The notes below the pieces were generated by a model. The model ran no database searches. It was not told the origin of the DNA and worked only from the letters and a program-made list of their open reading frames with translations. From assembly GCA_023565505.1 (NCBI GenBank), contig JAIMBI010000005.1, positions 67,784-131,783 on the forward strand: a stretch of 64,000 nt of DNA, written 5' to 3'. Shown in pieces: positions 6,192 through 27,760 of the stretch; position 1 is the first letter of the stretch; the number at the start of each line of letters is the position of its first letter. The stretch is from Actinomycetes bacterium (GTDB taxonomy: Bacteria > Bacillota > Sulfobacillia > Sulfobacillales > JAIMBI01). The translations under genes and the position numbers were made by a program.

Positions 6192-8015
<1,824 letters not shown>

Positions 8016-8135: not shown

Positions 8136-8170
8136 AAACAGCCATCTCCCCTGCGGAGGTGGCTGTTTGT
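8136..8170 (+). terminator. Candidate intrinsic terminator downstream of glmS
   Basis: AAACAGCCATCTCC-ccugc-GGAGGTGGCTGTTT: a 14-bp stem (one G.U) whose 3' arm ends in TTT. It lies 120 nt after the glmS stop. The U-tract is weak. Confidence 0.4.
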
Positions 8171-8343
8171 CGTGCGGATGGGCCACCCCAGGCGCCCAAA
8201 CACGGATGTCCGGGGGGTTACGAACACGCGATGCTTTCATGTCTTCCCGCGGGACGGTGTCTTTTCGGAGATCGAAATTATAAGGTGTCCGCGTGTAGAG
8301 CGAATGCTGTATTGTTGACAAAGATTCGACGCGAGCCGGATCA

Positions 8344-9225: not shown

Positions 9226-9394
9226 CGCCGCGGCGCGTCCCGGTTCGGCGGCCCGAGGACACACCCGGGCGTCTCGACAACGCGTCGCAGGGAGCGGGAA
9301 CACGCCGGGGCGCAGGCGCGTCCGCGTTGCTGGTCCGTGTCCATCAGGCCGATATTCCCCGGCCAGGAGTCTAGGCAAGGAGGCAGTCGAATTG

Positions 9395-10579: not shown

Positions 10580-10658
10580 GCCATGCGGGAGCCGACCGGA
10601 TGGCGCGAGCGCCTCCGCGGCATTCGGCCGGCCTTCCCGCACCAGGGTGGAGATGACA

Positions 10659-11525: not shown

Positions 11526-11574
11526 GGGTGGACGGATCGGCGTCAATTCGCAAGGGGTGAGGCGGGAGCCTGCG

Positions 11575-12528: not shown

Positions 12529-13240
12529 AGGGGTCTCGAAGCGGTTCGGGGGTCTTTGGGCGGTCAATAACCTGACGTGCGAAATAGCCCGGGATGTCAT
12601 CACCTGCTTGGTTGGGCCCAACGGAGCCGGCAAGACCACCGTGTTCAACCTCATCACCGGCTTTCTGCAGCCCGACGGCGGGCGGATTTGGTATGGCGAA
12701 CGGCGCATCGACGGCCAGCCGCCTCCGGTCGTGGCCCGTCTGGGCATCGGGCGGACGTTCCAGGACCTCAAGCTCTTCGGCAACATGACGGTCCTGGAGC
12801 ACCTGCTGTTGGCCCAGGAACGCGGGCTGCTGAGCTGGAGACGGTACCGGACGTTGAAAGCCGAGGCGGAGCGAATCCTCGAGCGGTTCGAGCTGCTGGA
12901 GAAAGCCCATTGGCTGGCGTCCGACATCAGCTACGCCGAGCAGAAGTTTCTCAGTTTGGCCCGCTTGGTGGCGCTCGGACCGCGCGCGCTGCTTTTGGAC
13001 GAACCGGCGTCGGGGTTGGACGGACCCTCGTTGGATAAGCTCGTGTATTTCATCCGGAGCCTGCAGGGAGAAGGGCGCAGCGTGTTGGTGATCGAGCACA
13101 ATCTGGACATCGTCCGCCAGCTGGCGGATCATATCCTCTTTCTTGACAATGGCCAGCTGGTCGCCGAGGGATCGCCCGAAAAAATTTTCGGGGACGATCG
13201 CCTGGCGGACCTGTACTTCGGGCGGGTGCGCGGAGCGTGA
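12515..13240 (+). CDS. ABC transporter ATP-binding protein (LivG family)
   Basis: ATG 12515 lies 6 nt after GGAGG. Walker A GPNGAGKTT, signature-region YAEQKFLSLAR, Walker B LLLDEPASGL. Confidence 0.88.
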   Translation: MLRLEGVSKRFGGLWAVNNLTCEIARDVITCLVGPNGAGKTTVFNLITGFLQPDGGRIWYGERRIDGQPPPVVARLGIGRTFQDLKLFGNMTVLEHLLLAQERGLLSWRRYRTLKAEAERILERFELLEKAHWLASDISYAEQKFLSLARLVALGPRALLLDEPASGLDGPSLDKLVYFIRSLQGEGRSVLVIEHNLDIVRQLADHILFLDNGQLVAEGSPEKIFGDDRLADLYFGRVRGA

Positions 13241-13956
13241 CCGAAGTGTTGCTCGAGGTGGCCGACGTGCACGCGGGCTACGGCAACGTGCCCGTGTTGC
13301 GCGGTGTGAGTCTGAGCGTGCGGCCGGCCGAGGTGGTCGCTCTGCTCGGACACAACGGAGCGGGCAAGACCACCTTGCTCCGAGCGGTGTATGGCCTCAT
13401 CACGGTCTGGAAAGGTCGTATCGCGTTCGACGGTCAAGACGTCCACACGCCGGCGGGCGCCCTGGCCGCCCGCCGCGGAATGGCACTGGTGCCACAGGGC
13501 AAAGGGGTCTTCGGCGGACTCACGGTGGGCGAAAACCTCCGCCTGGGGCTGTGGGCCAGTGGCCTCCGCGACAAGGACCCCGAGGCCCGGCGACGCCTCG
13601 AGCGCGTGTTCGGGTATCTGCCGGTGCTGCGGAACCGGTGGAACGAGCGTTGTCGGGCGCTGTCGGGGGGGCAACAGCAACTGGTCAGCATCGGTCGCGC
13701 CCTGCTGGTTCAACCACGGTTGCTGCTCCTCGATGAGCCGTCTGTAGGATTGGCACCCATCATGGTGGAGCAGACCATGGAGCTGGTTGGCCGTCTTCGG
13801 GACGAGGAGCGGCTTGGCGTCGTCCTGGTGGAGCAGAACGTGCGGCAGGCTCTGACCATCGCCGACCGGGTGGCCGTGTTGAAGAACGGCCGTATCATCC
13901 GCACGGGAGAGCCGGCGGAACTGGGGGTCGCCGAGCAGCTTTGGGCGCTGTTCTGA
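13237..13956 (+). CDS. ABC transporter ATP-binding protein (LivF family)
   Basis: GTG 13237 overlaps the upstream stop (GTGA). Walker A GHNGAGKTT, LSGGQQQ, LLLLDEPSVGL. Confidence 0.88.
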   Translation: MTEVLLEVADVHAGYGNVPVLRGVSLSVRPAEVVALLGHNGAGKTTLLRAVYGLITVWKGRIAFDGQDVHTPAGALAARRGMALVPQGKGVFGGLTVGENLRLGLWASGLRDKDPEARRRLERVFGYLPVLRNRWNERCRALSGGQQQLVSIGRALLVQPRLLLLDEPSVGLAPIMVEQTMELVGRLRDEERLGVVLVEQNVRQALTIADRVAVLKNGRIIRTGEPAELGVAEQLWALF

Positions 13957-13988
13957 TTCGAAGTGAAGCTGTGGGGGTGTGCGACACG

Positions 13989-15638
13989 ATGCAGGCCGAG
14001 ACCCTGTACCAGTGGCTCAAGGATGTGGCGACGCGTTATCGCGAGCACGTTGCGCTGGTCTCTCACGAGGCCGCCGCACGACGCGAGTGGACCTACCTCG
14101 CGTTCGTGGAGGCTGTCGAACGTGCCGCAGGCGGACTCCAAGCGCTGGGATACGGACGCGGCCAGGCCCTGGCCGTCTGGCTGCCCAACACGGTCGAGTG
14201 GCTGGTGATGGAGTTTGCCGGTGCGATGCTCGGCCTATTGGTCGTTCCGCTTAACACCCGGTACCGCGCCCATGAACTGGGACATCTCTTGCGCTTGAGC
14301 CGCGCGCGAGGCCTGGTCTTCATGCCACGGTTCCTGAACATCGATTTCGCGGGCATTCTGGAAGAGGTTCTCTCGGAAGACGGGAGTGAACTGGCCCTGG
14401 AGCACGTTTTCGTCACGGGGACGGATCCGTCTGCTGTCCGAGTGGGATCGCCGGCCAAGCCCGTGGCCGTTCACGCGCTCGGCGAGGTGTTGGCGGGTCG
14501 ACCGGCCGAGGAGGAGGCCTTCCCGCACGATCTCGTCAACGTGTTCGGCACGTCGGGGACCACGTCGGCACCCAAGCTGGCGGCCCACGACCAAGCCAGC
14601 ATCGTGCGTCACGCGGAGGCGATGGCGCGGGCCTTCGCCTTGGGCGAGGGGGAGCGGACGCTGGGCCTCCTGCCGTTCTGCGGCGTCTATGGGTTCTGTG
14701 CGGCATTCAGTGTTCTGGCGGCGGGCGGCACACTCATCCCCGTTCCGGCGTTCGACGCCCGCCGCGTGGCCGCGCTGATGGCCGACGAGTCCGTCACCTT
14801 CCAGCCGATGAGCCACATCATGCTCCGGCAGATTCTCGATCTGGAAGATTTCGACTTCGCCCGGCTGAGGTCCTGGACGCGCGGGACGTACGCCACCCTG
14901 AATCGTCCCCAAGAACTGGCGGAGCGTGCATTCCGCACGATCGGCGTCCGTCTGACCAACGTGTACGGCTCGTCGGAGGCGTTTGCCATGATGACCCACT
15001 GGCCTTGGGACGATCCGCTCGAGCAGCGGTCTCTCCCGGGAGGGCACGTGGTCAGCGACGACATCCGGGTCCGGGCGGTGGACCTGGGGACCGGTGCCGT
15101 GTTGCCGCCGCGGGTCTCCGGCGAGATCCAGCTCCAAGGCTACAACGTCCTGACCCAATATCTCGGGAACCCGAATGCGACGGCCGAGGCGTTCACCCCG
15201 GATGGATGGTTCCGGACCGGCGACCAGGGGTACGTCCTCGACGACCGCACGTTCGTGTTGGAGAACCGGCTGAAGGATACGATTCGCTTGCGCGGGTTCC
15301 TGGTCAGCCCGACCGAAATCGAGGAATTCCTGCTGCAACATCCTGCCGTGGAGATGGCCCAGGTCGTCGGGGTCAACCTTCGCCCGGAGGAGGACGACGT
15401 CGCCGTCGCGTTCGTCAAGCGGAAGCCGGGCCAGGAGACGACCGAGGAGGCGTTGCGGCTGTTTTGCAAGGAGCGCTTGGCCTCTTTCAAGCTTCCGTCC
15501 CGATTCGTGTTCGTCGAGGAGTACCCCATGACCCCGAGTGCGAACGGCGACAAAGTCCAGAAGGTGAAGTTGCGCGAGTGGGCGCGTGCCATTTTGACCG
15601 GCGCCGAGCCCAGCGCGGTGACCAAGGTGGTGCCCTGA
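13989..15638 (+). CDS. AMP-dependent synthetase/ligase (acyl-CoA synthetase-like)
   Basis: ATG 13989. Adenylate-forming motifs FGTSGTTSAPK, YGSSE, GWFRTGDQGY; C-terminal PMTPSANGDKVQK. Confidence 0.85.
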   Translation: MQAETLYQWLKDVATRYREHVALVSHEAAARREWTYLAFVEAVERAAGGLQALGYGRGQALAVWLPNTVEWLVMEFAGAMLGLLVVPLNTRYRAHELGHLLRLSRARGLVFMPRFLNIDFAGILEEVLSEDGSELALEHVFVTGTDPSAVRVGSPAKPVAVHALGEVLAGRPAEEEAFPHDLVNVFGTSGTTSAPKLAAHDQASIVRHAEAMARAFALGEGERTLGLLPFCGVYGFCAAFSVLAAGGTLIPVPAFDARRVAALMADESVTFQPMSHIMLRQILDLEDFDFARLRSWTRGTYATLNRPQELAERAFRTIGVRLTNVYGSSEAFAMMTHWPWDDPLEQRSLPGGHVVSDDIRVRAVDLGTGAVLPPRVSGEIQLQGYNVLTQYLGNPNATAEAFTPDGWFRTGDQGYVLDDRTFVLENRLKDTIRLRGFLVSPTEIEEFLLQHPAVEMAQVVGVNLRPEEDDVAVAFVKRKPGQETTEEALRLFCKERLASFKLPSRFVFVEEYPMTPSANGDKVQKVKLREWARAILTGAEPSAVTKVVP

Positions 15639-16051
15639 TGGCGACTCCGGGAAAGCTCGCAGATTTCTGCACGGGGCCGTGGGGGCAGGTCATCGCCTCG
15701 GAACTGGAAGCCCACCCGGGGTTTCAGGCCTCTGCCGCGTGGTTCGATGGGACGATCCGGCTGGCTGCAGACGGACGGAGTGTGACCTTCCGGATCTACA
15801 GGGGGCGGGTCATCGAGGTAGCCGAGCGCAATCCCTTCGGGCACACCTTCTCGATTGCCGCTGACGACGCGACCTGGGAGGCGATCCTGTCGTCACGGCG
15901 GAATCGGTTCGTGGCGTGGGCCATGCAAGACCGGGTCCGGGTCGAGGGCAACGTCCTGGAGTATCTTCGTGTTTTCAAAGCGGTCATGGCGTTGGTGGAC
16001 GTGGCGCGTGAGTGGTATCGGCAAGGTCGGTCCGAGGCGGGTGGGGCGTGA
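15638..16051 (+). CDS. SCP2 (sterol-carrier-like) lipid-binding domain protein
   Basis: ATG 15638 overlaps the upstream stop (TGATG). 137 aa. The C-terminal half (WEAILSSRRNRFVAWAMQDRVRVEGNVLEYLRVFKAV) resembles the SCP2 fold. Assignment rests on pattern only. Confidence 0.55.
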   Translation: MATPGKLADFCTGPWGQVIASELEAHPGFQASAAWFDGTIRLAADGRSVTFRIYRGRVIEVAERNPFGHTFSIAADDATWEAILSSRRNRFVAWAMQDRVRVEGNVLEYLRVFKAVMALVDVAREWYRQGRSEAGGA

Positions 16052-16854
16052 TGGAGGTCAGAGGACGTTACGTATTCGTGGAAGGCGTGCGCGCCTTCGT
16101 CGAGGAAGCGGGCGAGGGACGGCCCGTGGTCTGCCTCCACACGGCGGGCCAGAGCGGCTTCCAATGGCGCTATGTGATCGAAGATTTGGCAGCCAGGCGT
16201 TATCGTGTCGTGGTGCCGGACTTGCCTGGCCACGGCCGTTCGGCGTTCAAGGACGGTCGGCCGGTGCAGGACCTGCACGAGTACGCGGAATGGGTGTGGA
16301 GCTTGATAGGGGTCCTCGGGCTTCCGCGGCCGGTCATCGTGGGATGCTCGATCGGCGGGAAGATCGCGTTGGACTTGGCCGTCCACCATGGCGCCGACTG
16401 TGCCGCGGTCATTGCGTGCGAGGCCGACGGCCGACCGCGTCCGCGCAACGTGAACGCCCTGCTGCGCTCCCTTGAAGACGCCGCTTCGCCGAGCCGGCAG
16501 GATCGGACGTATTTCGGTACGCTGGCGGCCTGTGGGGACGTGACGCCTCCCGAGCGCCTGGAGGAGATTGCGATGGTTCACCGGCGGGAGGACAGCGTGA
16601 TCACGACGTACGACCAGTTGGGGTGGGCGCGCCACGATCTGATGGCCCAGCTCGGGGGGATCCGCTGTCCGACCCAGTTGGCCGTGGGCGACCAAGACTT
16701 TTTCGTTCCCGTTTCGTGGGTGGAGGAGACAGCTCGCGCGATTCCGGGCGCCGCCATCGAGGTGCTGGAAGGTGTCGGCCACTACCCGATGGAGGAGATG
16801 CCGGACTTCGCCGAACGTGTGGACGGGTGGGTGCGGAAACTGCTCGGCCGGTGA
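16051..16854 (+). CDS. Alpha/beta-fold hydrolase
   Basis: ATG 16051 overlaps the upstream stop. Motifs: CLHTAGQSG, PDLPGHGRS, nucleophile elbow GCSIGG, C-terminal GHYPMEE. Confidence 0.8.
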   Translation: MEVRGRYVFVEGVRAFVEEAGEGRPVVCLHTAGQSGFQWRYVIEDLAARRYRVVVPDLPGHGRSAFKDGRPVQDLHEYAEWVWSLIGVLGLPRPVIVGCSIGGKIALDLAVHHGADCAAVIACEADGRPRPRNVNALLRSLEDAASPSRQDRTYFGTLAACGDVTPPERLEEIAMVHRREDSVITTYDQLGWARHDLMAQLGGIRCPTQLAVGDQDFFVPVSWVEETARAIPGAAIEVLEGVGHYPMEEMPDFAERVDGWVRKLLGR

Positions 16855-17103: not shown

Positions 17104-19965
17104 TCATGCGTCTGCTTCTGCGGAGGCCTCGGACTCAGAACTTTCCACCAGGGTATCGTCTCCCGTCAGGTCTCGTAGCGCCGTCCGGAGTTCCGCGAGC
17201 GTGGCGCCGTCGAACCCTGAGGGGTCCGACGCCGCCAGGTGGACTTGGATGGCCAGCGCCGGACTGCTCACGAGGGGCATCAACACCCGCCGATAGAAAA
17301 GGACCCACTTTTGGTGTGGGATGTTCCCGGACCAAGTCACTCGGGTGACGCGCCCAGGTGCGTCGTCGCCCGCGGGGATGTCCTCCCCGCCACGTTCCGC
17401 GTCTTGATCTTCATCTTTTTCCTGTCCGGCTCCTGCCCCCGTGTGATGAAGGTCTTCACCCTGCCGTTCGCGTTCGCCGGATCCGCCGCCCGTGGGCGTC
17501 TCCTCCACCCGCCGAGCACGCTCCAGCCGTCGCCGAGCCTCTTCGGCTGCCAGGAGATAGGCTTCCTCGCTGATGTCCACGTCCTTCGCGCTCAACGCCG
17601 TACCCAAGCGCAGCGTCTCATCCGGGAGGCCGACCAGACCGTAGGCGAAAAGCCCCTGTGCGACGCCCTCGGCGATGGTGTCCTGGATCGCGGTCCTGCG
17701 GAGCAGACGCGGAAAGACCGGGGCGGCAAAGATGGCATCGTGGACGGCCTTCGTCGGCCATGCGGTGCGTGCCGGCGGCCAGTTCGCCACGAGGCGCGAA
17801 GGGGCGAGCGCGGTGGCGACGTCGCCGCTGTGCTGGAGTTCCTCGATGATGAGGCTCTGCAGGGAGGGTGCGGCACTGGAGTGGACGAGGCCGAGGTCCA
17901 CGGACTTCAGGCTGCCATCTTTCCTCAGGAGGACAAGGTGCCGATAGGCACGCCACACCGCTTCCGCCAGGTCACGTTGGCTGGTCCGGACGTGTTCGGA
18001 GAGGAGACGACGCTGTTCGTCGTCCAGGCCGAGCCGTGCTTCGTCCTCCTGAAGGCCCTTCCAGGCGAGGAACCGCCGCGCGCGGTCTTCGAGATCCGTG
18101 CCGTCCGCCGCCACGGCGAACACCAGGGCGTTCTTGAAGGTGCGCCCCGTCTGCCCGTGCTCGCGCACGCACTGTTCGATGAAAGCCCGCGTCGCCGCTT
18201 CGTTCGCCATGGACCGATCCGGCCGAAGGACCACCAGCGTGAGGCGCGGTTCATCGGGGACGTCCCGGGTGTGTTCCGGCCCGAGCACGACCCGGAGGTC
18301 GGCTTCACCGACTCCCTTCGCGGACTGGAAGACCTCGGTGACGGCGTTCCAGACGGCTGTCGCGACCTCGGCATCGGCAATGGTGGCGCGCCGGTCGGCC
18401 AGGAGGTGGTTGAGGTTCGGCCGGACCCCGAACCGGTAGCGTCCGCCCGCGACATGCAGGTAGTAGCAGCTTTCCTCCAGCGCCGAGAGGGCCTGCTCGA
18501 CCGACCCGATGTCGAGATCCGGTTCGCCCACGGCCAGTCGGAGTTCCGGGAGCGTGGCCTCCGCGCGGGCCTGTCCGCCGTTGGACTCGAAGAAGATGGC
18601 GGTCGCCACCTTCCGGTGCAGGCCCAGGCGCTGGAAGGAACGCGGGGCCGTCTCATCGAGCCGTATCGCGTGCGCCCCCCGGTTTCCGGCGATGTCGGTC
18701 GTCACGGCGGGCTCCAGGCGTTGTTCGCCGAGCTGCTCGAACAACGCCGCCCGGAAGCGGCCGTTCTCTAGGGGTGCGGTCCCGAGGGTGATCAGGGGAT
18801 CCCTGTGCGCACCGCGAAGGCCTTGCTCGTAGGCGTCGACGACCCAAAGGGCGAGCAGGTGGAGGATGCCCCGCGTGCGCTGAAAGCGGGGCAGGGTCTG
18901 CCACTTCCGTTCGAAGACCGAGAGGACGGTCGGATGGAAGGGATACGCGGCGAGGAACTGAGCCTCCGCTTGATCCACGGGAAACCAGCCCGGGAGCAAC
19001 TGGCGATGCGCCGTTACCCAGGCGGCGTAGGCGGACGCGACCCGCGGGGCCGGCCGGGGCAAGCCCGTCCACTCGAAGAGGCGCCGGCGGACGATCTCGG
19101 CGATCTCCGTCCCCTCCGAGAGGAGCTCCGCCCGCGCCACGCGGTCGAGGAGTTTTTGCAGGCGTGCGTAGTCCGATTCGTCCTCCGCGGTCATTTCGAG
19201 CTCCGATGCCTGGAGTGCGACAAGGAGGGCGACGTTGCGCCGGCTCTGGACGGCTTCGATGAGGTTCTGAAGGAAGACGTAGAACTGGGTGGCGCCGTTC
19301 GACGCCCGGTTCTCGCCGGCCGGCACGGTGCGGGCCCGGGCGACGTAGTTCATGACCTCGTCCATCAGGATGAGGGCCGGCTGGTCGGGCGGGAAGATGC
19401 TTGCCAGCGTCATGGCGTCGGGCGCGACGCCGAAGCGGTCATGGTCGGCCACGCGGGCGAAGGCGCGTTCCCCGCCGAGCTGGAAGGCCATCTCCCCCCA
19501 CGGGGTCCGGCGGGTAGGCCCGTCCTCCTTCCGTCCGCCCACGGCATCGAACGTCTGCCCGACGAACACCGCCACGGCGGCGGCCTGGGGGGCCGCGACC
19601 CCCGCGTCCGCAAGAAGCGCCGGCACGCCGGGCCACTCCCGAGCACGCTCCCCCCCGCAGGCGAGGTGGTAGAGGAGCGTCAACGCATGGGTCTTGCCGC
19701 CTCCGAACTGCGTCGTGAGGTTGTACACGCCGGAGGCGCCGAGGGTCTCGCCGGCGAGTCGCCGCAGAACCTCCACCGCCAGGCGCCGGAGGTTGCGCGT
19801 GGGATACGTGCGCTCGAAGAACTGTGCCGGGTCCACGTACACGGCGGGAGCCCGACCCAGGCGGACGTCGTCCAGGCGGACGGCAAACTCCGCGGCGTCG
19901 AGGGGCCGCCCCTCCCGCAGGTCGGCCCGCGGCAGCACCACTTTGTACCACGGATCGAGGGCCAT
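17104..19965 (-). CDS. DUF499-family P-loop ATPase (COG1483-like), third gene of the helicase/methylase/ATPase module
   Basis: ~953 aa. N-terminal WYKVV.PR.DL..G block, Walker A TTQFGGGKTHAL, Walker B PALILMDEVMNY, an acidic low-complexity linker and a C-terminal domain. ATG 19965 lies after GAGGTGAGG; GTG 19974 is an alternative. Confidence 0.8.
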   Translation of the reverse strand: MALDPWYKVVLPRADLREGRPLDAAEFAVRLDDVRLGRAPAVYVDPAQFFERTYPTRNLRRLAVEVLRRLAGETLGASGVYNLTTQFGGGKTHALTLLYHLACGGERAREWPGVPALLADAGVAAPQAAAVAVFVGQTFDAVGGRKEDGPTRRTPWGEMAFQLGGERAFARVADHDRFGVAPDAMTLASIFPPDQPALILMDEVMNYVARARTVPAGENRASNGATQFYVFLQNLIEAVQSRRNVALLVALQASELEMTAEDESDYARLQKLLDRVARAELLSEGTEIAEIVRRRLFEWTGLPRPAPRVASAYAAWVTAHRQLLPGWFPVDQAEAQFLAAYPFHPTVLSVFERKWQTLPRFQRTRGILHLLALWVVDAYEQGLRGAHRDPLITLGTAPLENGRFRAALFEQLGEQRLEPAVTTDIAGNRGAHAIRLDETAPRSFQRLGLHRKVATAIFFESNGGQARAEATLPELRLAVGEPDLDIGSVEQALSALEESCYYLHVAGGRYRFGVRPNLNHLLADRRATIADAEVATAVWNAVTEVFQSAKGVGEADLRVVLGPEHTRDVPDEPRLTLVVLRPDRSMANEAATRAFIEQCVREHGQTGRTFKNALVFAVAADGTDLEDRARRFLAWKGLQEDEARLGLDDEQRRLLSEHVRTSQRDLAEAVWRAYRHLVLLRKDGSLKSVDLGLVHSSAAPSLQSLIIEELQHSGDVATALAPSRLVANWPPARTAWPTKAVHDAIFAAPVFPRLLRRTAIQDTIAEGVAQGLFAYGLVGLPDETLRLGTALSAKDVDISEEAYLLAAEEARRRLERARRVEETPTGGGSGERERQGEDLHHTGAGAGQEKDEDQDAERGGEDIPAGDDAPGRVTRVTWSGNIPHQKWVLFYRRVLMPLVSSPALAIQVHLAASDPSGFDGATLAELRTALRDLTGDDTLVESSESEASAEADA

Positions 19966-19975
19966 GTGCCTCACC

Positions 19976-22909
19976 TCACAGCTTCAGCAGGCGGCGCGCG
20001 GCCAGGACGCCGTCCACCCAGCGCTTCTCCTCGCTCAGGGGCGGGTAGAGGGCGGAGAGGGTCTGGGCCAGTCGCCAGAACCGGGCGTCCTTCCCGGCAC
20101 CGTCATCGACCAAGAGCCGGCGGAGGGCGTCCATCCGGCCCGCCGCGAACAGGAGCATGCTCTGCTGGAGGCGCTCCAGGGTGGTTGTCCCGGGGGTGAG
20201 AGGGCCGTCGAGAGACGCGCCCTCGCGTTCCGAGTCCTCTCCAAACAGGGTGGTTTGGCGCCCACCCCGGCTGCCGCGGCTCGGCCTGGCCGTGCCCGAC
20301 CGGCCGCCCAGCAGCGTGCGCTCACGCTCCCGGACCGAGAGGAGGCGGGCGGTCTCCCCGCGGAGCTCGACGATGCCGCCGGGGCGGCTCGCCGCCTCCA
20401 GGTGGACGCCGAGCCCCTGGGCGATCTTCCGCGCCGTGTCGAAGTCGAGGGCCAAGGCCCCCGTTCGGCCAGGGCTACCGTTGGGGTTGCCGACCATCTC
20501 CGCCTCGGCGTCCTCCTCCTCGGTCGCCTCTTCCATGGCCCCGGCCTCGCCGCCGTCCTTGCCGGCAAAGAGCGTCCAAAGCCACATGGCGGTGAGCCGA
20601 GCGTCTTCCTCGAACCCCGACGCGTCGGCCTCCTGGAAGATGACGCGAAGCGCTGCGCGGGCGACGGCCGCCCACACCTCGGTCAAGTACTCGGCGAGCG
20701 GCACGGCTTCCCCGGACGGTTTCTCGACGCGGTCGTAGCGGCTGAACACCTCGAGGGCGGGTCCGAGACAGGCGAAGATGGCGTCGGCGCCCACGATGCC
20801 TTCGGCCGCAAGGCGCGGGAGCCACGCGTGGACGCGCCGCGGCAGCTCTTCCAGGACGTCCCGCCAGTCGCCGACCGAACCTGGCGTCCGGGGCCGGCAG
20901 GCCAGATGGACGGAGGAGGCGAGTGCTGCCGACTTCTGGGCACGGAGACGTCCTGGCCGCTCTGTGTCCACAGGCCAAGAGCCGGTGATGGTCCAGCCCG
21001 CATCCACGAGAGCCTGGAGCATCGCCTCCCAGCCGGCGGTGGACTTGTGGGCGAAGACGACCACGGCGATGCCGTCGTCGGCCAGGAGCCGACGCGCCTC
21101 GGCGAGGGCAACACGCATGGTGGATTCGAAGTACGCCCGGTCCTTGCCGGCGGCCGGATTGACGACGCATTCCGCGTCCTTGGGGACGAGCGCGGTGCGG
21201 AACAGGTCGGGGTAAAGGTCTCCCACCGTGCGTCGCAACCACACGTAGAAGAAGTCCGAGAGGTCCCCGTAGGGGACGGCGTCGTAATACGGCGGGTCGG
21301 TGATCACCGCCTGGGCAAGACCGTCGGGGAGCGGAAGAGCCGTGGCAGAGGCCGGGACCGCTTGACTCTCGCCGACCCATGAGACGACGTTAGCGTGGCA
21401 TACTTGAGCCACCCACTCGACAGCCCCATCCCAATCTCCGGTGGCCCCGGAAAACGGGAATACCTCCACAAAGTCCCAAACTATGGGGAACGCTTGTCGA
21501 CCAAAGGTGTGTGCTACGAATTCACCACTGGATGCCCATATCGCAAGCGAGGAACCGTAGTCGGCTAGTCGGTCTAGAGCCAATCCCAAGCATGTACCCA
21601 CCACTCGGGCGAACTCCTCGCCCCGTTCCTCCCGAATTCGCTCGCTCGCAGTACGCACATACTTGGCCAGCGTCGTGAGGACGAGCAGCTGACGGGGGGT
21701 GAAGAGATCGCCCCAGACGGTGACGCCGTACGTGCCGGGTGTAAAGGCTCGAGAGTCGTGGGCGGGAAACAGCTCGTCCGGCACCGCCGGGAGGCCGTTG
21801 AGCCGCTCCCCCTGCCGCCGTGCCAGGTCCCGTGCCGCTTCGGCAGCGGCCACGAGATCCCGCTCGGTCGGGAGCCGGTAGTAGCGACCCTGGGTGCTCG
21901 GATGCGTCAGCACGACCGCGAGCAGACGCGCATCCGCGGCGCCGCCCCGGCGCGTCCGGAGCTGCTCCCGCACCCGGGCCACCGGCGTCGTGTAGCCGCA
22001 GACCGGGCAGGCGGCAGAACCCCGCCGCACCGTACCCGGCGCGACGTCGTCCTCGGTGGCGGGTCGGCCGTCCTGGCCGACGATCCGGAAGGCGACCTTC
22101 CCCGTCCGGCGTGCCGCGTCGTCGAGAGCCAGCCCGACACCGCGCCCCGTCTTTTTCCGCAGCCAGAACGAGCGCACGAGCGGCACCTCAATCCCGCAGC
22201 CCGGCCCCTCACAGCGAATGGTGCGGGCCCAGAGGTACGCGATGGGGGTCGAGCCGTCAGGGTCCTTCGGGTAGAACGCGCGCAGTTCCTTCTCCGCCTG
22301 ATCCTTCACCCACCGTCCCCAGGTCCGCACGGCTTGGGCCAATTCCGGTCCGAAGCGGGGGATGTCCTCCAGCACGACCCGGTTGAGGAGCACCGCCACC
22401 GGATTGAGGTCCGAGGCGAAGGCCTCGGCGCCGACGCGCGCCGCTTCGAGCGGGATGGCCCCCCCGCCGGCGAACGGATCCACGACCAGGGGCCGCGTGT
22501 CTCGGTCCCCGCCCAACGCCCGATGGGCCGCGTCGACGAGGCCGCGGGCGACGGCGAGGTACGCCGGATCGGCCGCGCGCTCCCAGTGGGCGAAGTCGGC
22601 GATGAACTCCAGCAGGGCTGAGCGTTGCGCCCAGGGGTCATCCCAATCGACCTGGCGCCCCCGGCGTGTCCAGAAGGGTCCGAGATGCGCGGCCACCGCC
22701 GCCCGAAAGGGCGGCGGGCACGCGGGATCCGCCGGATCGGGCCAGAGCGCCGCCAGCACCACGGCCCGGCAGGCGGCCAGCGGTCGCCGCGCCCACCAGA
22801 TGTGGAGCGTCGAGATGTGCCCGTGGCGGATCGACTTCTCCCGCCGGGCCGCGGCGCTCACCTGGCCGATCGGGAGGTCGACTTCGATAAGGCGCCGGGG
22901 TCCCGTCAT
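19976..22909 (-). CDS. DUF1156-type DNA methyltransferase with zinc ribbon (COG1743-like)
   Basis: ATG 22909 follows GAGGAAGGG and overlaps the helicase stop (ATGA). N-terminal LIEVDLPI...GHISTLHIWWARRP, SAM motif VVDPFAGGGAIPLEA, Cys pairs CEGPGC ... CPVCG, catalytic ITDPPYYD. Confidence 0.85.
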   Translation of the reverse strand: MTGPRRLIEVDLPIGQVSAAARREKSIRHGHISTLHIWWARRPLAACRAVVLAALWPDPADPACPPPFRAAVAAHLGPFWTRRGRQVDWDDPWAQRSALLEFIADFAHWERAADPAYLAVARGLVDAAHRALGGDRDTRPLVVDPFAGGGAIPLEAARVGAEAFASDLNPVAVLLNRVVLEDIPRFGPELAQAVRTWGRWVKDQAEKELRAFYPKDPDGSTPIAYLWARTIRCEGPGCGIEVPLVRSFWLRKKTGRGVGLALDDAARRTGKVAFRIVGQDGRPATEDDVAPGTVRRGSAACPVCGYTTPVARVREQLRTRRGGAADARLLAVVLTHPSTQGRYYRLPTERDLVAAAEAARDLARRQGERLNGLPAVPDELFPAHDSRAFTPGTYGVTVWGDLFTPRQLLVLTTLAKYVRTASERIREERGEEFARVVGTCLGLALDRLADYGSSLAIWASSGEFVAHTFGRQAFPIVWDFVEVFPFSGATGDWDGAVEWVAQVCHANVVSWVGESQAVPASATALPLPDGLAQAVITDPPYYDAVPYGDLSDFFYVWLRRTVGDLYPDLFRTALVPKDAECVVNPAAGKDRAYFESTMRVALAEARRLLADDGIAVVVFAHKSTAGWEAMLQALVDAGWTITGSWPVDTERPGRLRAQKSAALASSVHLACRPRTPGSVGDWRDVLEELPRRVHAWLPRLAAEGIVGADAIFACLGPALEVFSRYDRVEKPSGEAVPLAEYLTEVWAAVARAALRVIFQEADASGFEEDARLTAMWLWTLFAGKDGGEAGAMEEATEEEDAEAEMVGNPNGSPGRTGALALDFDTARKIAQGLGVHLEAASRPGGIVELRGETARLLSVRERERTLLGGRSGTARPSRGSRGGRQTTLFGEDSEREGASLDGPLTPGTTTLERLQQSMLLFAAGRMDALRRLLVDDGAGKDARFWRLAQTLSALYPPLSEEKRWVDGVLAARRLLKL

Positions 22910-25900
22910 ACGTCGTCCCTTCCTCGGGCAATACGGAGGACATCGGGGCCGAGCCGCCACCGTTCAATCCACTTCACGGGCTGCCACGCAAGACGGGTCG
23001 GGTCTTGGTGCCGGTGGAGCTCCGGCTTGGCTCGACAGCGGTACACGACGTAAAGCCAGTAATCCGCGCCCAGCTTCCTCGCGGTCTCATGCTCGTGGCG
23101 CGTCAGCTCCACCTCGTCGACATCCGCGCACCCCTTGACTTCGATGGCCCGCTGAGCCCCGGTGGCCGGGTGACGGGAGAGGATGTCGTAGCCCCGATTC
23201 TGTTCGTGCACGTCCTCGGGCTCCCATCCTTCAGCGCGCTCGAAGGCCATGGCGACCTCCATGGCGATCCGCTCCACCTCCTCGTCCCGGACGCGGCGCC
23301 GCGTCGCCGGGTCGGTGTGAGGCAGCACCCACGCCGAACCCAGTCGCTCAAACGTCCCGGCGATACAGTGTTGTTGAAGACTCAACTTGCGCTGAGTCTC
23401 GTCGAGGCGGCGGTTGAGGTCGGCAAGGTGCTGCTCCGCCTGGACGATCTGCCCCGCCAAGCCCGGCGCATCGGGTTCCTCCCGCTGCCGGTCGAGCAGG
23501 TCACCCAGGCGGACGTTGGCCTTCTCGATGAGGGCGTTGAGTGAGATCTGCGCGTGCTCCAGCACCATGGCGGTTTCCCGCCGCCGCGCGGCTTCCACCG
23601 TCTGCCGGAGCGGATAAACGGCCTGCTCCAGGACGAAGCGTTCGCTCGCCTGCGTGGACGGCAGGTCCGAATCGGCCGGGGCGGTCCCTTCGCCGGGGAG
23701 GAGGTCGAGGAAGACCGTCGGTTCCCGGAGGGCCAGCGTGCCATCCGCCCGCGCCTCGGCCACGAAAAGCCGCTCTTCGACGGTCGCCCCGGTCCCGTCG
23801 ACGATGGCGGCCCGGAAGAGGTCGAGCCGTCGGGGCTGTTCCGCCTCTACGTCAAAGAGGACGGTGCCCGCGCGCAGAGCATCTCGCGCCAACTCGGCCA
23901 CTTCGGCACGGACGGCCTCGAAGAGGGGATGTCCCGGAGTGACCCATTCGAGCGTGGGGGTCTTGACCAGCCGTTCTTTGTCGAAGGTGATGGGGCCATA
24001 TTCGTGCCCGAGGCGTCCGAAGCGCGGTTCGAGTTCGGGACCTCGGCGGAGAAGGGTCGAGGGCAGGCGGCCAATTCGGTAGACGTGGTTGTCCCCGCGG
24101 ACCGGCCGCGGAGTGAGACCCACCGACGGTGCCGCATCCAAGAAGAAGCGCTCCACATCTTCCGGGACGAGTCGCCGTTCCTTGACCTCGGCCTGTTGGC
24201 GGACAAGAGCCGAGAGGTTGAGCTCGCGCCGCGCCAGCCCCTCGAGGGCGGAGTCGGTGATCCGGCGGAACGCCTCCGGGCGGAGGCCCTTGACGATCCG
24301 CTCCTCGATCTCGGGCAGGGTGGTCTTCCTTGCGTAGAGCTCCCGCATCATGCGCTCGATCTCGTTCTGCGGGAAGATCTCGCCGACGACGTCGAACACC
24401 TGGTCGGTGCCCAGTTCGCTGCGGATCTCCTGCAGACGGGTGAGGAGCTTCTGCAGCACGCGGCCTTCACGGGTACCCCGGGCGATGAAGTTGAAGGCAA
24501 GCACGTCGCGTTCCTGTCCGTAGCGGTGGATGCGCCCGATCCGCTGCTCGAGCCGCACTGGATTCCACGGGACGTCGTAGTTGATGAGGAGCCAGCAGAA
24601 CTGAAGGTTGATCCCTTCGCCGGCCGCCTCCGTCGCCACGAGCACCTGGCTGGTTTCGCGGAACTCTCGCTCCGCATGGAGCCGGGTGCCGGGCGTGTCC
24701 CGGTCGCCGACCTTCATCCCGCCGTGGATGACGCTCACCGGGAGGCCCCAGCGTCTTAGCCAACCCAGCGGTCGGTCCTGCTTGCCGTCTCCGGCCAGGT
24801 AGTCCAGCGTGTCCTTGTGTTCGGTGAACACCAGGAGCTTCATGGTGGGGTCACCGAAGAGGCCTTGGTCCGTCACGAGTTGGCGCAGCCGCTGGAGTTT
24901 CGACTCCACACCCGCTGCCTCCAGCGCGCGGGCCCGATCGATGAGGGCCTCGAGCTGGCGGATGTCGTGACGCAGGGACGCCGGGTCGAAGGCCAGGACC
25001 AGCTTTTCGAGTTCCTCCTCGAACGCCTGCCGATCCTCGTCGGGCCAGTCGTCCTCGTCCTCCGGCAGGCGCCAAGCCTTCCGCTGCTGCTCGTGGAAAT
25101 AGCGTTCCGGGTCCTTCAGGATCTCCTCCCGGTGGCGTTTCATCCGCTCAAGGCTTCGCCGGCAGGCGTAGACCGAACTCGCGAACCGACGCTGCAGCAT
25201 CGCCATGGTGAACTGCATGGCGCGGGCCTGCGGCGAGTCTTGCCGGGCGGCTTCGGCCGACCGCTCCTCCACGTAGCGGGTCAGTTCCTCGTAAAAAGCC
25301 ATCTCCTCGTCCGAGAGGTCGAAGAGGATGGACTCGACCCGGCGATTGGTGAAGAGCTTCTTCACGGCGCCGGTTTCCGGGTCGGGAAAGCTCACGAGTG
25401 CCTCTTTCGTCCGGCGCAGGTAGAAAGGGGCGCGGTTCCGACGCATCGCCTCCTCAAGACTCTTGACGTCTCCGTAGACGTCCTTGTCCAACAGCTCGAG
25501 GAAGAGGCAGAAGTTGACCGGGTCTCCTTTATGGGGGGTGGCGGTCATGAGGAGGAGGTGGTCCGTTCGCTCCGAGAGAGCCTCCCCGATCTGGTACGCG
25601 TACGTCTTCTTGTCCCGGCTCTGGGCGCTCATCTTGTGAGCCTCGTCGACGATCACGAGGTCCCAGTGGGCGGCCCGGAGCAGGCTGTCACGCGCGTCTT
25701 CGATGCGGGAGATCCAGGAGATGGAGGTGATCACCTGGTCTTTCTCCTGCCACGGGTTCTGGCCATACACCGAGCGGAGTGTCTCGCCGCGCACGATCTC
25801 GAAGACTTCGCGGAACTTCTCGCGGAGCTCCCGCTGCCACTGGAACATGAGGTTGGCCGGGGTGACGACGAGAATACGACGAACGAGTCCACGCGCCTTC

Positions 25901-26364
25901 AACTCACGCAGCAGGAGCCCGGCCATGATGGTCTTCCCCGCCCCGGGATCGTCCGCCAGGAGGAAGCGGATGCGGGGGAGCTTCAGGAAGTACTCGTAGA
26001 CGGCCTCGAGCTGGTGTGGCAAGGGATCCACCCGGGAGACCGACAGGGCGAAGTAGGGGTCGTACTCGTAGGCGAGCCCCAGCCGCAGCGCCTCGACGCC
26101 CAACAGGAATCGCCGCGCATCTCCGGTGAAGGTGTCGTGCGAGCGCACGATCTCCACAGCGCCGATCTGCTCTGCGGTGAGTCGAAGCGGTTCATAGCGC
26201 CCCGACGGGATATGGACGACCTCGAGCTGCCAGCCGTCTCCAAGCACCTCGGCGTAGATCACCCGCACTTCGTTGGGGAAAAACGGGGCCCGGAGGACGG
26301 TGCCGCGACCGGGCGGGGGTGGTACCGGCACGATACTCCCTCCCCACCAAAAGGTGTGCGACAT
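22906..26364 (-). CDS. SNF2-family helicase fused to a C-terminal DUF3883-like (D-ExK nuclease-fold) domain
   Basis: Motifs: LLADDPGAGKT (I), VIVDEAHK (II), LLLMTATPHKG (III), ATEAAGEGINLQ (V), QRIGRIHRYGQ (VI). The C-terminus has GYDILS...AIEVKG. Start set at ATG 26364 (MSHTFWW); the track ORF extends to 26502 with a Gly/Pro-rich leader. Confidence 0.85.
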   Translation of the reverse strand: MSHTFWWGGSIVPVPPPPGRGTVLRAPFFPNEVRVIYAEVLGDGWQLEVVHIPSGRYEPLRLTAEQIGAVEIVRSHDTFTGDARRFLLGVEALRLGLAYEYDPYFALSVSRVDPLPHQLEAVYEYFLKLPRIRFLLADDPGAGKTIMAGLLLRELKARGLVRRILVVTPANLMFQWQRELREKFREVFEIVRGETLRSVYGQNPWQEKDQVITSISWISRIEDARDSLLRAAHWDLVIVDEAHKMSAQSRDKKTYAYQIGEALSERTDHLLLMTATPHKGDPVNFCLFLELLDKDVYGDVKSLEEAMRRNRAPFYLRRTKEALVSFPDPETGAVKKLFTNRRVESILFDLSDEEMAFYEELTRYVEERSAEAARQDSPQARAMQFTMAMLQRRFASSVYACRRSLERMKRHREEILKDPERYFHEQQRKAWRLPEDEDDWPDEDRQAFEEELEKLVLAFDPASLRHDIRQLEALIDRARALEAAGVESKLQRLRQLVTDQGLFGDPTMKLLVFTEHKDTLDYLAGDGKQDRPLGWLRRWGLPVSVIHGGMKVGDRDTPGTRLHAEREFRETSQVLVATEAAGEGINLQFCWLLINYDVPWNPVRLEQRIGRIHRYGQERDVLAFNFIARGTREGRVLQKLLTRLQEIRSELGTDQVFDVVGEIFPQNEIERMMRELYARKTTLPEIEERIVKGLRPEAFRRITDSALEGLARRELNLSALVRQQAEVKERRLVPEDVERFFLDAAPSVGLTPRPVRGDNHVYRIGRLPSTLLRRGPELEPRFGRLGHEYGPITFDKERLVKTPTLEWVTPGHPLFEAVRAEVAELARDALRAGTVLFDVEAEQPRRLDLFRAAIVDGTGATVEERLFVAEARADGTLALREPTVFLDLLPGEGTAPADSDLPSTQASERFVLEQAVYPLRQTVEAARRRETAMVLEHAQISLNALIEKANVRLGDLLDRQREEPDAPGLAGQIVQAEQHLADLNRRLDETQRKLSLQQHCIAGTFERLGSAWVLPHTDPATRRRVRDEEVERIAMEVAMAFERAEGWEPEDVHEQNRGYDILSRHPATGAQRAIEVKGCADVDEVELTRHEHETARKLGADYWLYVVYRCRAKPELHRHQDPTRLAWQPVKWIERWRLGPDVLRIARGRDDV

Positions 26365-26678
26365 CTGCTTCTCGGTGGGAACTGTCGATTCCTGCCAGTC
26401 GCCCGGTTTCCAGCTATTGGCACATTGGCTTCTGCCGCAAGGCCCGCGTGCGGCCCCGGGACCATGCTCTCCGGGACCCGTGGTCCCCGCCTGCGGGTGC
26501 ATTACCGAGAGCCGTACGGATACTTACGGGGAGGCCAAGAGGACAGACGCCACGGGTGTCGCTTCAACCGCGCGACGTTCGGCCGATGTCGGCTGGATGT
26601 GTTTACGGCGCATGTCATGGTCGGATGGCCCAGGAAACATCAAGGTGGGGCGGAGCAAGAGGGTGCCGGCCGGGACGC

Positions 26679-26711
26679 AAAAAAGGGGAGTTGGGCCTAA
26701 GCCCGCTTCCC
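26679..26711 (-). terminator. Candidate intrinsic terminator of the YIEGIA gene
   Basis: Minus-strand RNA GGGAAGCGGGCUUAGGCCCAACUCCCC followed by UUUUUU, 90 nt downstream of the stop at 26804. Confidence 0.5.
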
Positions 26712-26803
26712 GTCCAGCGGTCCGCACCTCGGTGAGCGTTCGGCGGCCGGCTTAGCGACACTCGCTGTGCTTGGCGGAGTTCCTTCCGGCCTTGGGGGCC
26801 CTG

Positions 26804-27760
26804 TTAGGTCGGCGACGGCTCCCGGCCGGGTCGGACCCGCACGGGAGATCGCTTGGCCTTCTCCGCGAGCACGGGACTCATCAGGTGATGCCACTTACTG
26901 CTCTCGAGGATAGGGGTCTGGCGGATGGCGTTGAGGAGCGCGTTCATGTCCGGCATGACGGGTACGATGGCGAGGGCGGCGCGGCCGGTGCCCTGGGGCA
27001 TCTCCATCCGCGTGAGGGGCGTGAAGTCGGGGTAGCCCACGTCCTTCATGGCGCCGACGGCCATGGCCGCCTCGTGGGTGATGGCCTGCCGTTGGGCGAG
27101 ATTCCAGAGGACGGCTTGGCCGCGGGGATTCTTCGGGGTGAGCACCACCCCCATGCCGTCCTTGAGCCAGCGGTCACGGACGTGGGGGAGACCGACCTCC
27201 ATCAGCATGACGTCGTCCACGTACAGGAGCGACTCCTTCTCGAACCGGATCTGGCCCGGCTGCACGTCGATGACGTCGCCGACCACGCCCCCGGACATGA
27301 ACCGTTCCCCGAGGACCAGGAGGACGATGCCGGCGACGACGCCCCCGACCCACCCGAACAGCGCCGTGGCGCCCGACGTGCCGAGCCCCACCAGCATGGC
27401 GAGGTAGTTCCGCGCCTCGAACGTCCGGGCGATCCCCTCGATGTACCCCGCGCCCCGGGGGACCAGGATGAGGTCCTCCTCCTGCTCCAGGGTCTTCCGC
27501 TCCGCTTCGCGGACGTTGCGGAACTGGGTCGCAGCGAGGGTGAGGAAGGTGGCGGCGGTGAACTCCTTGGCCACCAGCGACGTGATCACCGCCGACCCGA
27601 TCATCGCCGCGATGATGCCCATGGTCAGCTCCGAGATGTAGCCGCTGGGATAGCCGGGGTAGCCGCGTTGCCCCGGCCTGAGCGAGATGAGCCGGCTGAT
27701 GAAGCCGGCGGCCAGGCCGATCTCCATCGGCAGCCAGTTGACGGGACCCGAGCCCCCCAT
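26804..27760 (-). CDS. YIEGIA-family membrane protein
   Basis: 318 aa. ATG 27760 lies 7 nt after GGGAGG. Contains the literal family motif GAGYIEGIARTFE between TM segments. Confidence 0.75.
   Translation of the reverse strand: MGGSGPVNWLPMEIGLAAGFISRLISLRPGQRGYPGYPSGYISELTMGIIAAMIGSAVITSLVAKEFTAATFLTLAATQFRNVREAERKTLEQEEDLILVPRGAGYIEGIARTFEARNYLAMLVGLGTSGATALFGWVGGVVAGIVLLVLGERFMSGGVVGDVIDVQPGQIRFEKESLLYVDDVMLMEVGLPHVRDRWLKDGMGVVLTPKNPRGQAVLWNLAQRQAITHEAAMAVGAMKDVGYPDFTPLTRMEMPQGTGRAALAIVPVMPDMNALLNAIRQTPILESSKWHHLMSPVLAEKAKRSPVRVRPGREPSPT

Follow-up and report, generated by a model that had tools for sequence, protein, structure and literature searches.

A compact, cargo-free Hma (Type-1 DUF499-centred BREX-related) defence operon on an uncultured high-GC bacterial contig

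Which defence system do three very large, tightly packed genes on a high-GC contig encode, and how would their products distinguish host from foreign DNA? This question is raised by a 64,000-nt stretch of contig JAIMBI010000005.1 (hereafter the window, to which all coordinates refer), in which hmaA, hmaB and hmaC lie head to tail on the minus strand (17104-26364). A first-pass annotation of the same DNA had described them as a helicase, a methyltransferase and an ATPase forming a restriction-modification (R-M)-like module with no established mechanism. The locus is almost certainly an Hma operon, or Type-1 DUF499-centred BREX-related (BR) operon, where BREX denotes bacteriophage exclusion. This copy is intact, compact and cargo-free, a new instance of an already named and widespread family. 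Since that family occurs in thousands of genomes, the copy itself is ordinary; what the locus gains is a firm annotation of its three proteins as HmaA, HmaB and HmaC of a BREX-related defence system.

The assignment is carried by profile matches that run nearly end to end. The top PADLOC model for HmaA is HmaA (PDLC00659; E 8e-173, model positions 22-1130 of 1176), those for HmaB are the HmaB models PDLC00661 and PDLC00660 (E 4.5e-128, almost full length), and that for HmaC is HmaC (PDLC00662; E 3.7e-118, model positions 1-847 of 941), so that the system is canonical Hma. These matches agree with the suggestion of the first-pass annotation that the trio is the helicase-methylase-ATPase candidate of the PADLOC paper. 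The Pfam families it had predicted were likewise all recovered: SNF2-rel_dom (PF00176; 4.9e-19), Helicase_C (PF00271; 1.5e-19) and NOV_C, or DUF3883 (PF13020; 8e-22), in HmaA, DUF1156 (PF06634; 1.6e-21) in HmaB and DUF499 (1.4e-17) in HmaC. Furthermore, every motif that had been quoted is present, namely DDPGAGKT, DEAH, TATP and QRIGRIHRYGQ in HmaA, EVDLPI, HIWWARRP, DPFAGGG and DPPY in HmaB, and GGGKTH and ILMDEV in HmaC. All testable defining features of Hma / Type-1 BR were found, and those of BREX (PglZ), DISARM and Type-2 BR were not.

The family has been described several times under different names. Hma was reported with 1,638 instances in 26 phyla (Payne et al., 2021, PMC8565338), the COG1743-DUF499-Snf2-nuclease operon was documented (Bell et al., 2020, PMC7641849), and the system was recently renamed Type-1 DUF499-centred BR, with 2,446 taxa among approximately 3,600 for all BR types (NAR 2026, PMC12839542). 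The latter work credits L. Aravind and colleagues (2013) with the first notice of the family, and an R-M-like model has already been proposed for it (PMC12839542; PMC7641849). Questions about what HmaB methylates, what HmaC does and how self is discriminated concern the whole family and not this locus.

The three genes show the codon-position GC pattern of genuine genes in this high-GC genome, and their sizes and packing are as previously described (Table 1). The end of hmaA and the beginning of hmaB fall within one ATGA, confirmed by reading the sequence, with a Shine-Dalgarno-like GAGGAAGGG upstream of it, an arrangement that would couple translation of hmaA and hmaB. The third gene does begin 10 nt after the second, and the hmaB-hmaC junction reads ctgTGAggtgaggcacATGgcc. 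Such tight coupling of hmaA, hmaB and hmaC suggests co-expression in fixed proportions. No frameshift or internal stop was found in any of the three genes, and no additional open reading frame (ORF) within the operon. The longest hmaA ORF extends to 26502; a GTG at 26331, preceded by a strong Shine-Dalgarno GGGGAGGGAG, is as good a start as the ATG at 26364, and alignments of HmaA orthologues are compatible with both. NCBI annotates the same three starts on a 140-kb contig of a metagenome-assembled genome (MAG), naming the products only as DUF3883 (MCL8207346, HmaA), DUF1156 (MCL8207345, HmaB) and DUF499 (MCL8207344, HmaC) "domain-containing" proteins. Related NCBIfam models (DISARM DrmD and the "anti-phage-associated" DUF1156, DUF499 and phospholipase-D-helicase set) score far below their equivalog cut-offs, which accounts for the uninformative naming in public records and sets the locus apart from those subtypes.

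Table 1. Features of the Hma operon and its upstream region (window coordinates; residue numbers refer to the respective protein; A1 and A2 are the alignments of 37 HmaC and 38 HmaB homologues).
Feature	Coordinates	Strand	Remarks
hmaA	22906-26364	-	1152 aa from ATG; Swi2/Snf2 (RapA/DrmD/BrxHII-like) helicase with C-terminal PD-(D/E)xK nuclease
HmaA Snf2 ATPase N-lobe, residues 134-372	25249-25965	-	PF00176; motifs I DDPGAGKT, II DEAH, III TATP
HmaA Helicase_C lobe, residues 489-616	24517-24900	-	PF00271; motif VI QRIGRIHRYGQ
HmaA NOV_C/DUF3883 PD-(D/E)xK nuclease domain, residues 1030-1117	23014-23277	-	PF13020
hmaA stop (TGA) / hmaB start (ATG) overlap, ATGA	22906-22909	-	context cgtATGAcg, read from sequence
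hmaB	19976-22909	-	977 aa; DUF1156-type amino-methyltransferase, predicted N6-adenine, big insert nested between motifs I and IV
HmaB DUF1156 helical module, residues 12-60	22730-22876	-	PF06634; EVDLPI...HIWWARRP; most conserved block of A2
HmaB S-adenosylmethionine (SAM) motif I DPFAGGG, residues 144-150	22460-22480	-	invariant in A2
HmaB 4-Cys zinc finger, C233, C238...C301, C304	21998-22213	-	all four Cys invariant in A2
HmaB catalytic motif IV DPPY, residues 538-541	21287-21298	-	invariant in A2
hmaB-hmaC 10-nt spacer	19966-19975	-	GGTGAGG Shine-Dalgarno 19969-19975 directly after hmaB TGA
hmaC	17104-19965	-	953 aa; DUF499 ORC/Cdc6-type AAA+ ATPase, BrxC structural homologue, without N-terminal HEPN fusion
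HmaC Walker A GGGKT, residues 88-92	19690-19704	-	G88-K91 invariant in A1
HmaC Walker B ILMDE, residues 199-203	19357-19371	-	L200, D202, E203 invariant in A1
HmaC disordered acidic/Gly-rich linker, residues 822-871	17353-17502	-	predicted local distance difference test (pLDDT) <50; least conserved, gappy columns of A1
HmaC small C-terminal domain, residues 872-950	17116-17352	-	pLDDT 71-88; moderately conserved; W878, W887 invariant
Upstream intergenic region, presumed operon promoter	26365-26803	-	inferred only
GC-rich hairpin + T6	26679-26711	-	~90 nt past YIEGIA stop codon

HmaA combines a Snf2 motor, whose closest PDB sequence is RapA (2e-37), with a C-terminal nuclease. Across five orthologues (alignment A3), the motor residues K144/T145, DEAH 240-243, TAT 274-276 and QRxGR 607-611 are invariant, and so are the predicted nuclease residues D1060, E1075, K1077 and E1091. 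From motif order and spacing, and not from direct alignment, the latter probably correspond to D1084/E1104/K1106/E1121 of the Halomonas protein. The orthologue from Halomonas has been studied experimentally (Liu 2024, PMC11232893): HmaA alone gives E. coli approximately 100-fold protection against T4 without host toxicity, and defence requires both Snf2 motif VI (R610A abolishes it) and the PD-(D/E)xK residues of NOV_C, whose joint mutation abolishes defence together with nickase activity. The isolated nuclease domain is a Mn2+-dependent nickase that acts on supercoiled plasmid and not on linear lambda DNA; protection fails at high multiplicity of infection and is accompanied by an abortive-infection (Abi)-like growth phenotype (PMC11232893). 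The phrase "no established mechanism" is therefore dated. The related statement that the recognition motif, the role of the ATPase and the restriction mechanism are uncharacterised still essentially describes the motif, the ATPase and self/non-self discrimination, but no longer the effector, for which nickase-dependent defence has been shown (PMC11232893). Similarly, the locus has no separate restriction endonuclease gene, as had been claimed, but a nuclease is present, fused to the C-terminus of the helicase. The first-pass annotation alluded to such a domain solely among its suggested tests. No Pfam match to a PLD/HKD nuclease was found in HmaA.

HmaB carries both motifs of N6-adenine DNA methyltransferases, the SAM-binding FxGxG and (D/N)PP(Y/F). 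The (D/N)PPY signature is common to N6-adenine DNA, N2-methylguanosine (m2G) RNA and HemK-type protein methyltransferases. Weak Pfam matches were obtained to UPF0020, MethyltransfD12 and N6_N4_Mtase, the best match of motif I being UPF0020 (RlmKL-like; 4.1e-5), and weak PADLOC matches to the Type II methyltransferase and PglXI models. An insert of approximately 390 amino acids separates DPFAGGG from DPPY and holds a zinc finger; the zinc ribbon announced as CxxC...CxxC does have four cysteines, but their spacing is Cx4C...Cx2C. This nested insert is a putative target-recognition domain (TRD), and one 4C zinc finger has been described within this insert for BR methyltransferases (PMC12839542). 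At least 8000 HmaB homologues were found in bacteria and archaea, mostly 50-60% identical over the full length. The insert itself remains 55-60% identical from Bacillota to Methanosarcinales, and no hypervariable block is present among the 38 aligned homologues; segments 241-300, 361-390 and 421-530 are distinctly more variable and could set specificity. According to PMC12839542, the HmaB core is indistinguishable from the Type-3 BREX methyltransferase (PglXI/BrxXI) and ends in a C-terminal helix-turn-helix (HTH) triad. Structure prediction adds little: Foldseek comparison of the AlphaFold2 model (pLDDT 72, low at DUF1156 and motif I) with the PDB returned only generic Rossmann methyltransferases (best E 0.03), and a search of PDB sequences with a hidden Markov model (HMM) profile of the HmaB alignment gave nothing meaningful. 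Because the model is mediocre and its matches generic, no conclusion on the substrate is drawn from it. The m5C (5-methylcytosine) specificity given for HmaB in the PADLOC paper (PMC8565338) was rejected, since DPPY denotes an amino-methyltransferase and the PADLOC database itself labels the protein a DNA-adenine methylase.

Some HmaB orthologues with 55-58% identity (P0143, P0147, P0176, P0183, P0192 and P0204) have an extra N-terminal domain, which is Macro (PF01661), NADAR/DUF1768 (PF08719) or DprA-like (PF02481), and at one Methanosarcinales locus (L005) a DarG-like macro protein is inserted before hmaB. Hma methylases thus appear recurrently linked with ADP-ribose-removing domains, a link on which the accessible portions of the Hma and BR literature contain no discussion.

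HmaC has more than 6,287 homologues. An AlphaFold2 model based on alignment A1 reached a pLDDT of 85, and its only Foldseek matches in the PDB at E<=0.001 were 9zdx, 9zll and 9zn5 (E 5.7e-8 to 4.8e-7, probability 1.0), cryo-EM structures of Acinetobacter BREX BrxC released in April 2026. Sequence and HMM profile searches gave no sequence-level match of HmaC in the PDB, BrxC chains included; the likeness lies at the level of the fold only. The family is DUF499, not DUF6079. The predicted BrxC fold independently supports the published, sequence-based link between DUF499 and BREX, and this fold match is the sole independent evidence that the present analysis adds. BrxC shows ATP-regulated self-association and DNA binding, and governs the balance of methylation and restriction in BREX (PMC13326643). 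A C-terminal RRM/ferredoxin-like sensor domain has been described for DUF499 ATPases (PMC12839542); on that description, the small C-terminal domain of HmaC would occupy the position of the RRM-like sensor, while DSSP assignment of the model gave helices only.

Comparison with characterised systems places the operon closest to Hma as defined by PADLOC, with Halomonas meridiana SCSIO 43005 as its experimental example; the trio of proteins is identical in kind, gene order is shared and a single strand carries all three. HmaA there has the same Snf2, Helicase_C and NOV_C architecture, and the nuclease residues and motifs I and VI are kept here. In Halomonas, Septu separates hmaA from hmaB, and two inserted genes separate hmaB from hmaC, whereas the present copy has no inserts and belongs to an uncultured MAG of approximately 71% GC. 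In the terms of the BR classification, it consists of the three-gene core only, with a DUF499 ATPase and no accessory genes, and shares the DUF1156 methyltransferase (N6-specific by prediction here) with its nested TRD and single 4-Cys zinc finger. The Snf2 helicase with an active C-terminal PD-(D/E)xK domain is the form found in 79% of Type-1 taxa; in contrast, HmaC has no N-terminal HEPN RNase, a fusion that the ATPase carries in approximately 56% of Type-1 taxa (1370/2446) (PMC12839542). The published description of Type-1 systems also gives the helicase an N-terminal Tudor domain and an internal inactive REase (PMC12839542).

The resemblance to other systems is partial. HmaC shares the BrxC fold with Type-3 BREX, HmaA matches the BrxHI|BrxHII models (2.6e-109 and 5e-100), and HmaB has the same nested-TRD methyltransferase architecture and a weak PglXI match. 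In Type-3 BREX, however, the nuclease is PglZ, whereas here a PD-(D/E)xK domain is fused to the helicase; genes for PglZ, BrxA and BrxB/BrxF are absent from the scanned flanks (approximately 11 kb beyond hmaC, 6126-16854, and approximately 10 kb beyond hmaA), with no PglZ among the ORFs at 6.1-28.9 kb or in the 10 kb beyond the YIEGIA gene that precedes hmaA. The coiled-coil dimerisation end of BrxC also differs from the HmaC C-terminus. The earlier exclusion of BREX thus stands by definition, given the lack of PglZ, but it understates the relationship, as the family is classed as BREX-related (PMC12839542) and the HmaC model matches only BrxC. Type-2 BR (NCBIfam 'anti-phage-associated' models NF042962-NF042964) has a homologous ATPase, methyltransferase and Snf2 motor, which match in part (E 7e-48, 8e-60 and 3e-46) and miss the equivalog cut-offs (163 vs 1200, 203 vs 1000 and 158 vs 1100); its helicase bears an N-terminal HKD/PLD nuclease and its operon a DUF3780 gene, while neither occurs here and the nuclease is the C-terminal PD-(D/E)xK domain. 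DISARM was rightly set aside. HmaA resembles DrmD of class 1 (PADLOC 4.2e-123; NCBIfam 3e-112), but its score of 377 lies under the cut-off of 610; DISARM class 1 also combines a helicase with an adenine methyltransferase, albeit one of another family, and DrmA, DrmB (DUF1998) and DrmC (PLD) are absent here. With Type I and III R-M, the operon shares the logic of an ATP-driven superfamily 2 (SF2) translocase with a PD-(D/E)xK nuclease and an amino-methyltransferase in one operon. It differs in lacking an HsdS or Mod-type specificity arrangement, in its third, giant ORC/Cdc6-like ATPase, in a helicase of Snf2/RapA type and not HsdR or Res, and in a nuclease that, in the Halomonas orthologue, is non-toxic to E. 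coli on its own (PMC11232893). The reported absence of PglZ, PLD, DUF1998, specificity-subunit and separate endonuclease genes is borne out throughout the scanned flanks.

Relatives of the operon reveal how constant its architecture is and how often it accommodates other genes. A scan of species-representative genomes with HmaC gave 41 loci, including Bacillota, Planctomycetota, Nitrospira, Latescibacterota, Vicinamibacterales, Chloroflexota and Methanosarcinales, and the closest matches to this copy lie in other phyla. The order hmaA-hmaB-hmaC on one strand was found wherever the flank sufficed, and most loci have gaps of 1.5-6 kb between the hma genes. Ten ORFs were sampled from the gaps of nine related loci. 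Defence models recognise seven of these at E<=1e-30, namely four AAA_21-type ATPases (two HEC-01A, HEC-04 and NsnB), PDC-M04A, a DarG-like macro protein and Ppl. The remaining three comprise a RES-domain protein, an HD-domain protein and one without a match. Approximately two-thirds of Hma loci have been reported as insertion hotspots for other defence genes (PMC11232893), and the association of homologous trios with defence genes, which the first-pass annotation had made a test of its own reading, is thus borne out by the inserts in relatives. HmaC homologues were found on 113 PLSDB plasmids and in 0 phage records, and an annotated Planktothrix plasmid has DUF3883, DUF1156 and DUF499 genes in the same order, with inserts.

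On these grounds, a compact three-protein R-M-like module directed against phages and plasmids is, with moderate confidence, the best overall explanation of the operon, with hmaA-hmaB-hmaC presumably transcribed as a single unit. HmaB would place SAM-derived N6-methyl groups on adenine at sites recognised through the zinc-finger insert, thereby marking host DNA as self, a proposal made because it has both motif I DPFAGGG and motif IV DPPY. HmaC, by analogy with BrxC biochemistry, would bind DNA in an ATP-dependent manner and serve as the scaffold and sensor through which detection of unmarked or foreign DNA is passed on to the effector. HmaA would translocate by means of its Snf2 motor and nick or cleave DNA through its NOV_C PD-(D/E)xK domain, halting phage replication; this role is assigned because its catalytic residues are invariant and because of the data on the Halomonas orthologue. 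Taken as a three-step scheme, the mechanism could equally well prove right or wrong in outline. Several observations weigh against it. No demonstration of methylation by any HmaB has been reported, and passage of T4 through a host expressing HmaB left its restriction unchanged, with the caveat that T4 DNA is heavily modified and HmaC was absent (PMC11232893). HmaA protects and is harmless in E. coli without HmaB, which is not as expected of a nuclease aimed at unmethylated sites, and approximately 15-20% of hmaA loci have no hmaB or hmaC (PMC11232893). Furthermore, the HmaB insert is far more conserved across phyla than typical target-recognition domains, the closest reported structural match of HmaB is a tRNA m2G methyltransferase (PMC11232893), and the HmaB model obtained here has no significant match in the PDB. 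The host, moreover, is an uncultured MAG, so that the function of this particular operon is read from gene content.

Much of the same evidence would fit HmaA as a self-sufficient effector that does not discriminate self from non-self by methylation, with HmaB and HmaC as regulators, range extenders or a partly independent module. HmaA would then resemble Nhi or Hna, recognising a phage-specific DNA structure or replication intermediate, nicking supercoiled DNA and slowing the cell. This is the leading alternative, although we consider it doubtful. Besides the non-toxic protection by HmaA alone, the indifference of T4 to prior exposure to HmaB and the hmaA loci without partners, it is favoured by the failure at high multiplicity of infection, the Abi-like growth phenotype and the preference of the isolated nuclease for supercoiled plasmid over linear lambda DNA (all PMC11232893). 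Those experiments are, however, informative for one phage and one heterologous host only. The three genes keep strict co-linearity and in this copy are coupled in translation; the conservation of HmaB and of HmaC, each 50-60% identical from bacteria to archaea with intact active sites, argues that selection has acted strongly on what these enzymes do alongside HmaA; and parallel BR subtypes exchange the nuclease (PD-(D/E)xK, HKD or PglZ) while keeping the methyltransferase and ATPase (PMC12839542). A rather unlikely reading, but one that would extend to the whole family including this copy, is that self is not discriminated through classical motif-specific methyl protection at all. HmaC, BrxC-like and with a variable C-terminal sensor, would then license HmaA on DNA structures or replication intermediates, and HmaB would lay down a conserved mark, perhaps of low specificity or not on DNA, that tunes HmaC and does not block cleavage sites. 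It fits because the HmaB insert is conserved, HmaA is harmless to the unmethylated E. coli chromosome and T4 responds no differently after passage through HmaB. A compact, cargo-free, coupled operon such as this one is a clean minimal system for probing that possibility; the insert-free trio would also lend itself to heterologous reconstitution, although equivalent loci number in the thousands.

The substrate of HmaB separates a further reading from the R-M-like one. If the substrate of HmaB were RNA (m2G-type), protein, or DNA with no defined motif, the resulting mark could serve for sensing or signalling in place of classical site protection. Its motif IV is of a kind shared with RNA and protein methyltransferases, motif I is most similar to an RlmKL-like family, and the nested insert is unusually conserved, with no hypervariable TRD visible among 38 homologues. 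Set against this are the weak but specific matches to D12 N6-adenine, N6_N4, PADLOC Type II methyltransferase and PglXI models, a core indistinguishable from PglXI/BrxXI with its HTH triad (PMC12839542), and the more variable insert segments that could set specificity, so that a non-DNA or motif-free mark appears improbable. A role outside defence, as a housekeeping Snf2/RapA-like module for transcription or chromosome maintenance with an attached methylase, or as an inactive remnant, is hardly credible. RapA is the best solved homologue of the motor, and the neighbours are metabolic or housekeeping genes with no other defence or mobility gene among them. Yet relatives are spread over many unrelated lineages of bacteria and archaea, with the closest in other phyla, homologues reside on plasmids, defence genes are embedded in related loci, and the Halomonas orthologue protects against T4 (PMC11232893). 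The ORFs here are intact, free of frameshifts and with all catalytic residues conserved, GC at third codon positions (GC3) is lower than in surrounding core genes, and synteny with a relative stops at the operon boundary. The R-M-like defence module remains the favoured explanation.

The genomic setting bears on how the operon was acquired. It is the only defence module in the approximately 31 kb scanned around it, and the immediate neighbours include no other defence or mobility gene, only metabolic and housekeeping genes. Upstream of hmaA, the minus strand continues with a gene for a YIEGIA membrane protein (26804-27760; Pfam 1e-101) and then EamA, NMO, MreB and others; the genes beyond hmaC converge on it and encode a liv-type ABC transporter, an acyl-CoA ligase and an alpha/beta hydrolase. 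The operon is not bordered by an integrase, a transposase or a genuine tRNA, and a search for flanking direct or inverted repeats gave none that was convincing. Two ARAGORN predictions, tRNA-Arg (10823-10920, plus strand) and tRNA-Ser (18941-19029, minus strand), were rejected, as they are overlong, lie inside the permease gene and hmaC, and were not confirmed by Rfam. The GC content of the operon is 68.7%, compared with 71.4% for the window and 73.6% for 27-64 kb, and its GC3 is approximately 0.83 against approximately 0.92 in most neighbouring genes. The lowest GC of the window is found in the liv/acyl-CoA ligase/alpha-beta-hydrolase cluster (9101-16854, plus strand; 65.2%, GC3 0.80-0.86). 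Since this lies below the operon, the low-GC stretch covers approximately 19 kb, of which the defence genes are only a part. The description of an accessory, lower-GC stretch accordingly holds only mildly: the operon is slightly low in GC, but the liv cluster is lower, and neither an integrase nor tRNAs or repeats accompany the operon. A relative with 81% identity (L046) shares the gene order through EamA and YIEGIA, and similarity ends exactly at the YIEGIA stop codon (26805). The L046 contig runs on for only 440 nt from there, and the break hints at an insertion boundary without proving one. No empty site was recovered among contigs with an identical YIEGIA protein, which belong to the same population and are 100% identical to the window. 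Together, the low GC and GC3 and the L046 synteny break suggest that the operon was horizontally acquired.

The region between hmaA and the YIEGIA gene contains few recognisable signals. Its GC-rich hairpin with T6 resembles an intrinsic terminator of the YIEGIA gene, which would plausibly insulate the Hma operon from upstream transcription. The folding energy of the hairpin is no better than that of shuffled sequence (z-score not significant), no sigma-70-like promoter emerged from simple consensus scans, which also failed to call the hairpin a terminator, and terminator-like matches were rarer than in shuffled sequence. A small extra gene upstream of hmaA, such as a BrxR-like regulator, was considered and discarded, as only spurious GC-rich ORFs occur there.

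Some observations concern individual relatives. Inserted cargo in loci L003-L039 is dominated by AAA_21/OLD-like ATPases (PADLOC HEC-01A), and PDC-M04A is a DUF3800 protein. One inserted ORF (L039:4933-6132) matches nothing in Pfam or PADLOC, and the RES-domain ORF (L023:2191-3645) has no PADLOC match. In a Ca. Argoarchaeum ethanivorans MAG (L007, 3324-6721), the hmaA orthologue is broken after codon 413 by a frameshift and is either a pseudogene or an assembly error; pyrrolysine (TAG) read-through was rejected, since this is a plain frameshift followed by 25 stops.

The window also offers indications of the identity of the host. Among species-representative genomes, the closest relative of HmaB and HmaC is a Bacillota MAG (L002), with 61-70% identity. 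A glmS ribozyme (6003-6154, plus strand; Rfam RF00234, 55.8 bits, E 3.5e-10) precedes a GlmS-type gene (6126-8015; GATase and SIS domains). YIEGIA genes and glmS ribozymes are typical of Bacillota. The deposit label 'Actinomycetia' may be wrong, and the host may belong to a high-GC Bacillota-like lineage. In addition, a selenocysteine tRNA was found at 60786-60876 (plus strand; Rfam tRNA-Sec 74.3 bits, ARAGORN anticodon TCA), and the organism therefore probably uses selenoproteins.

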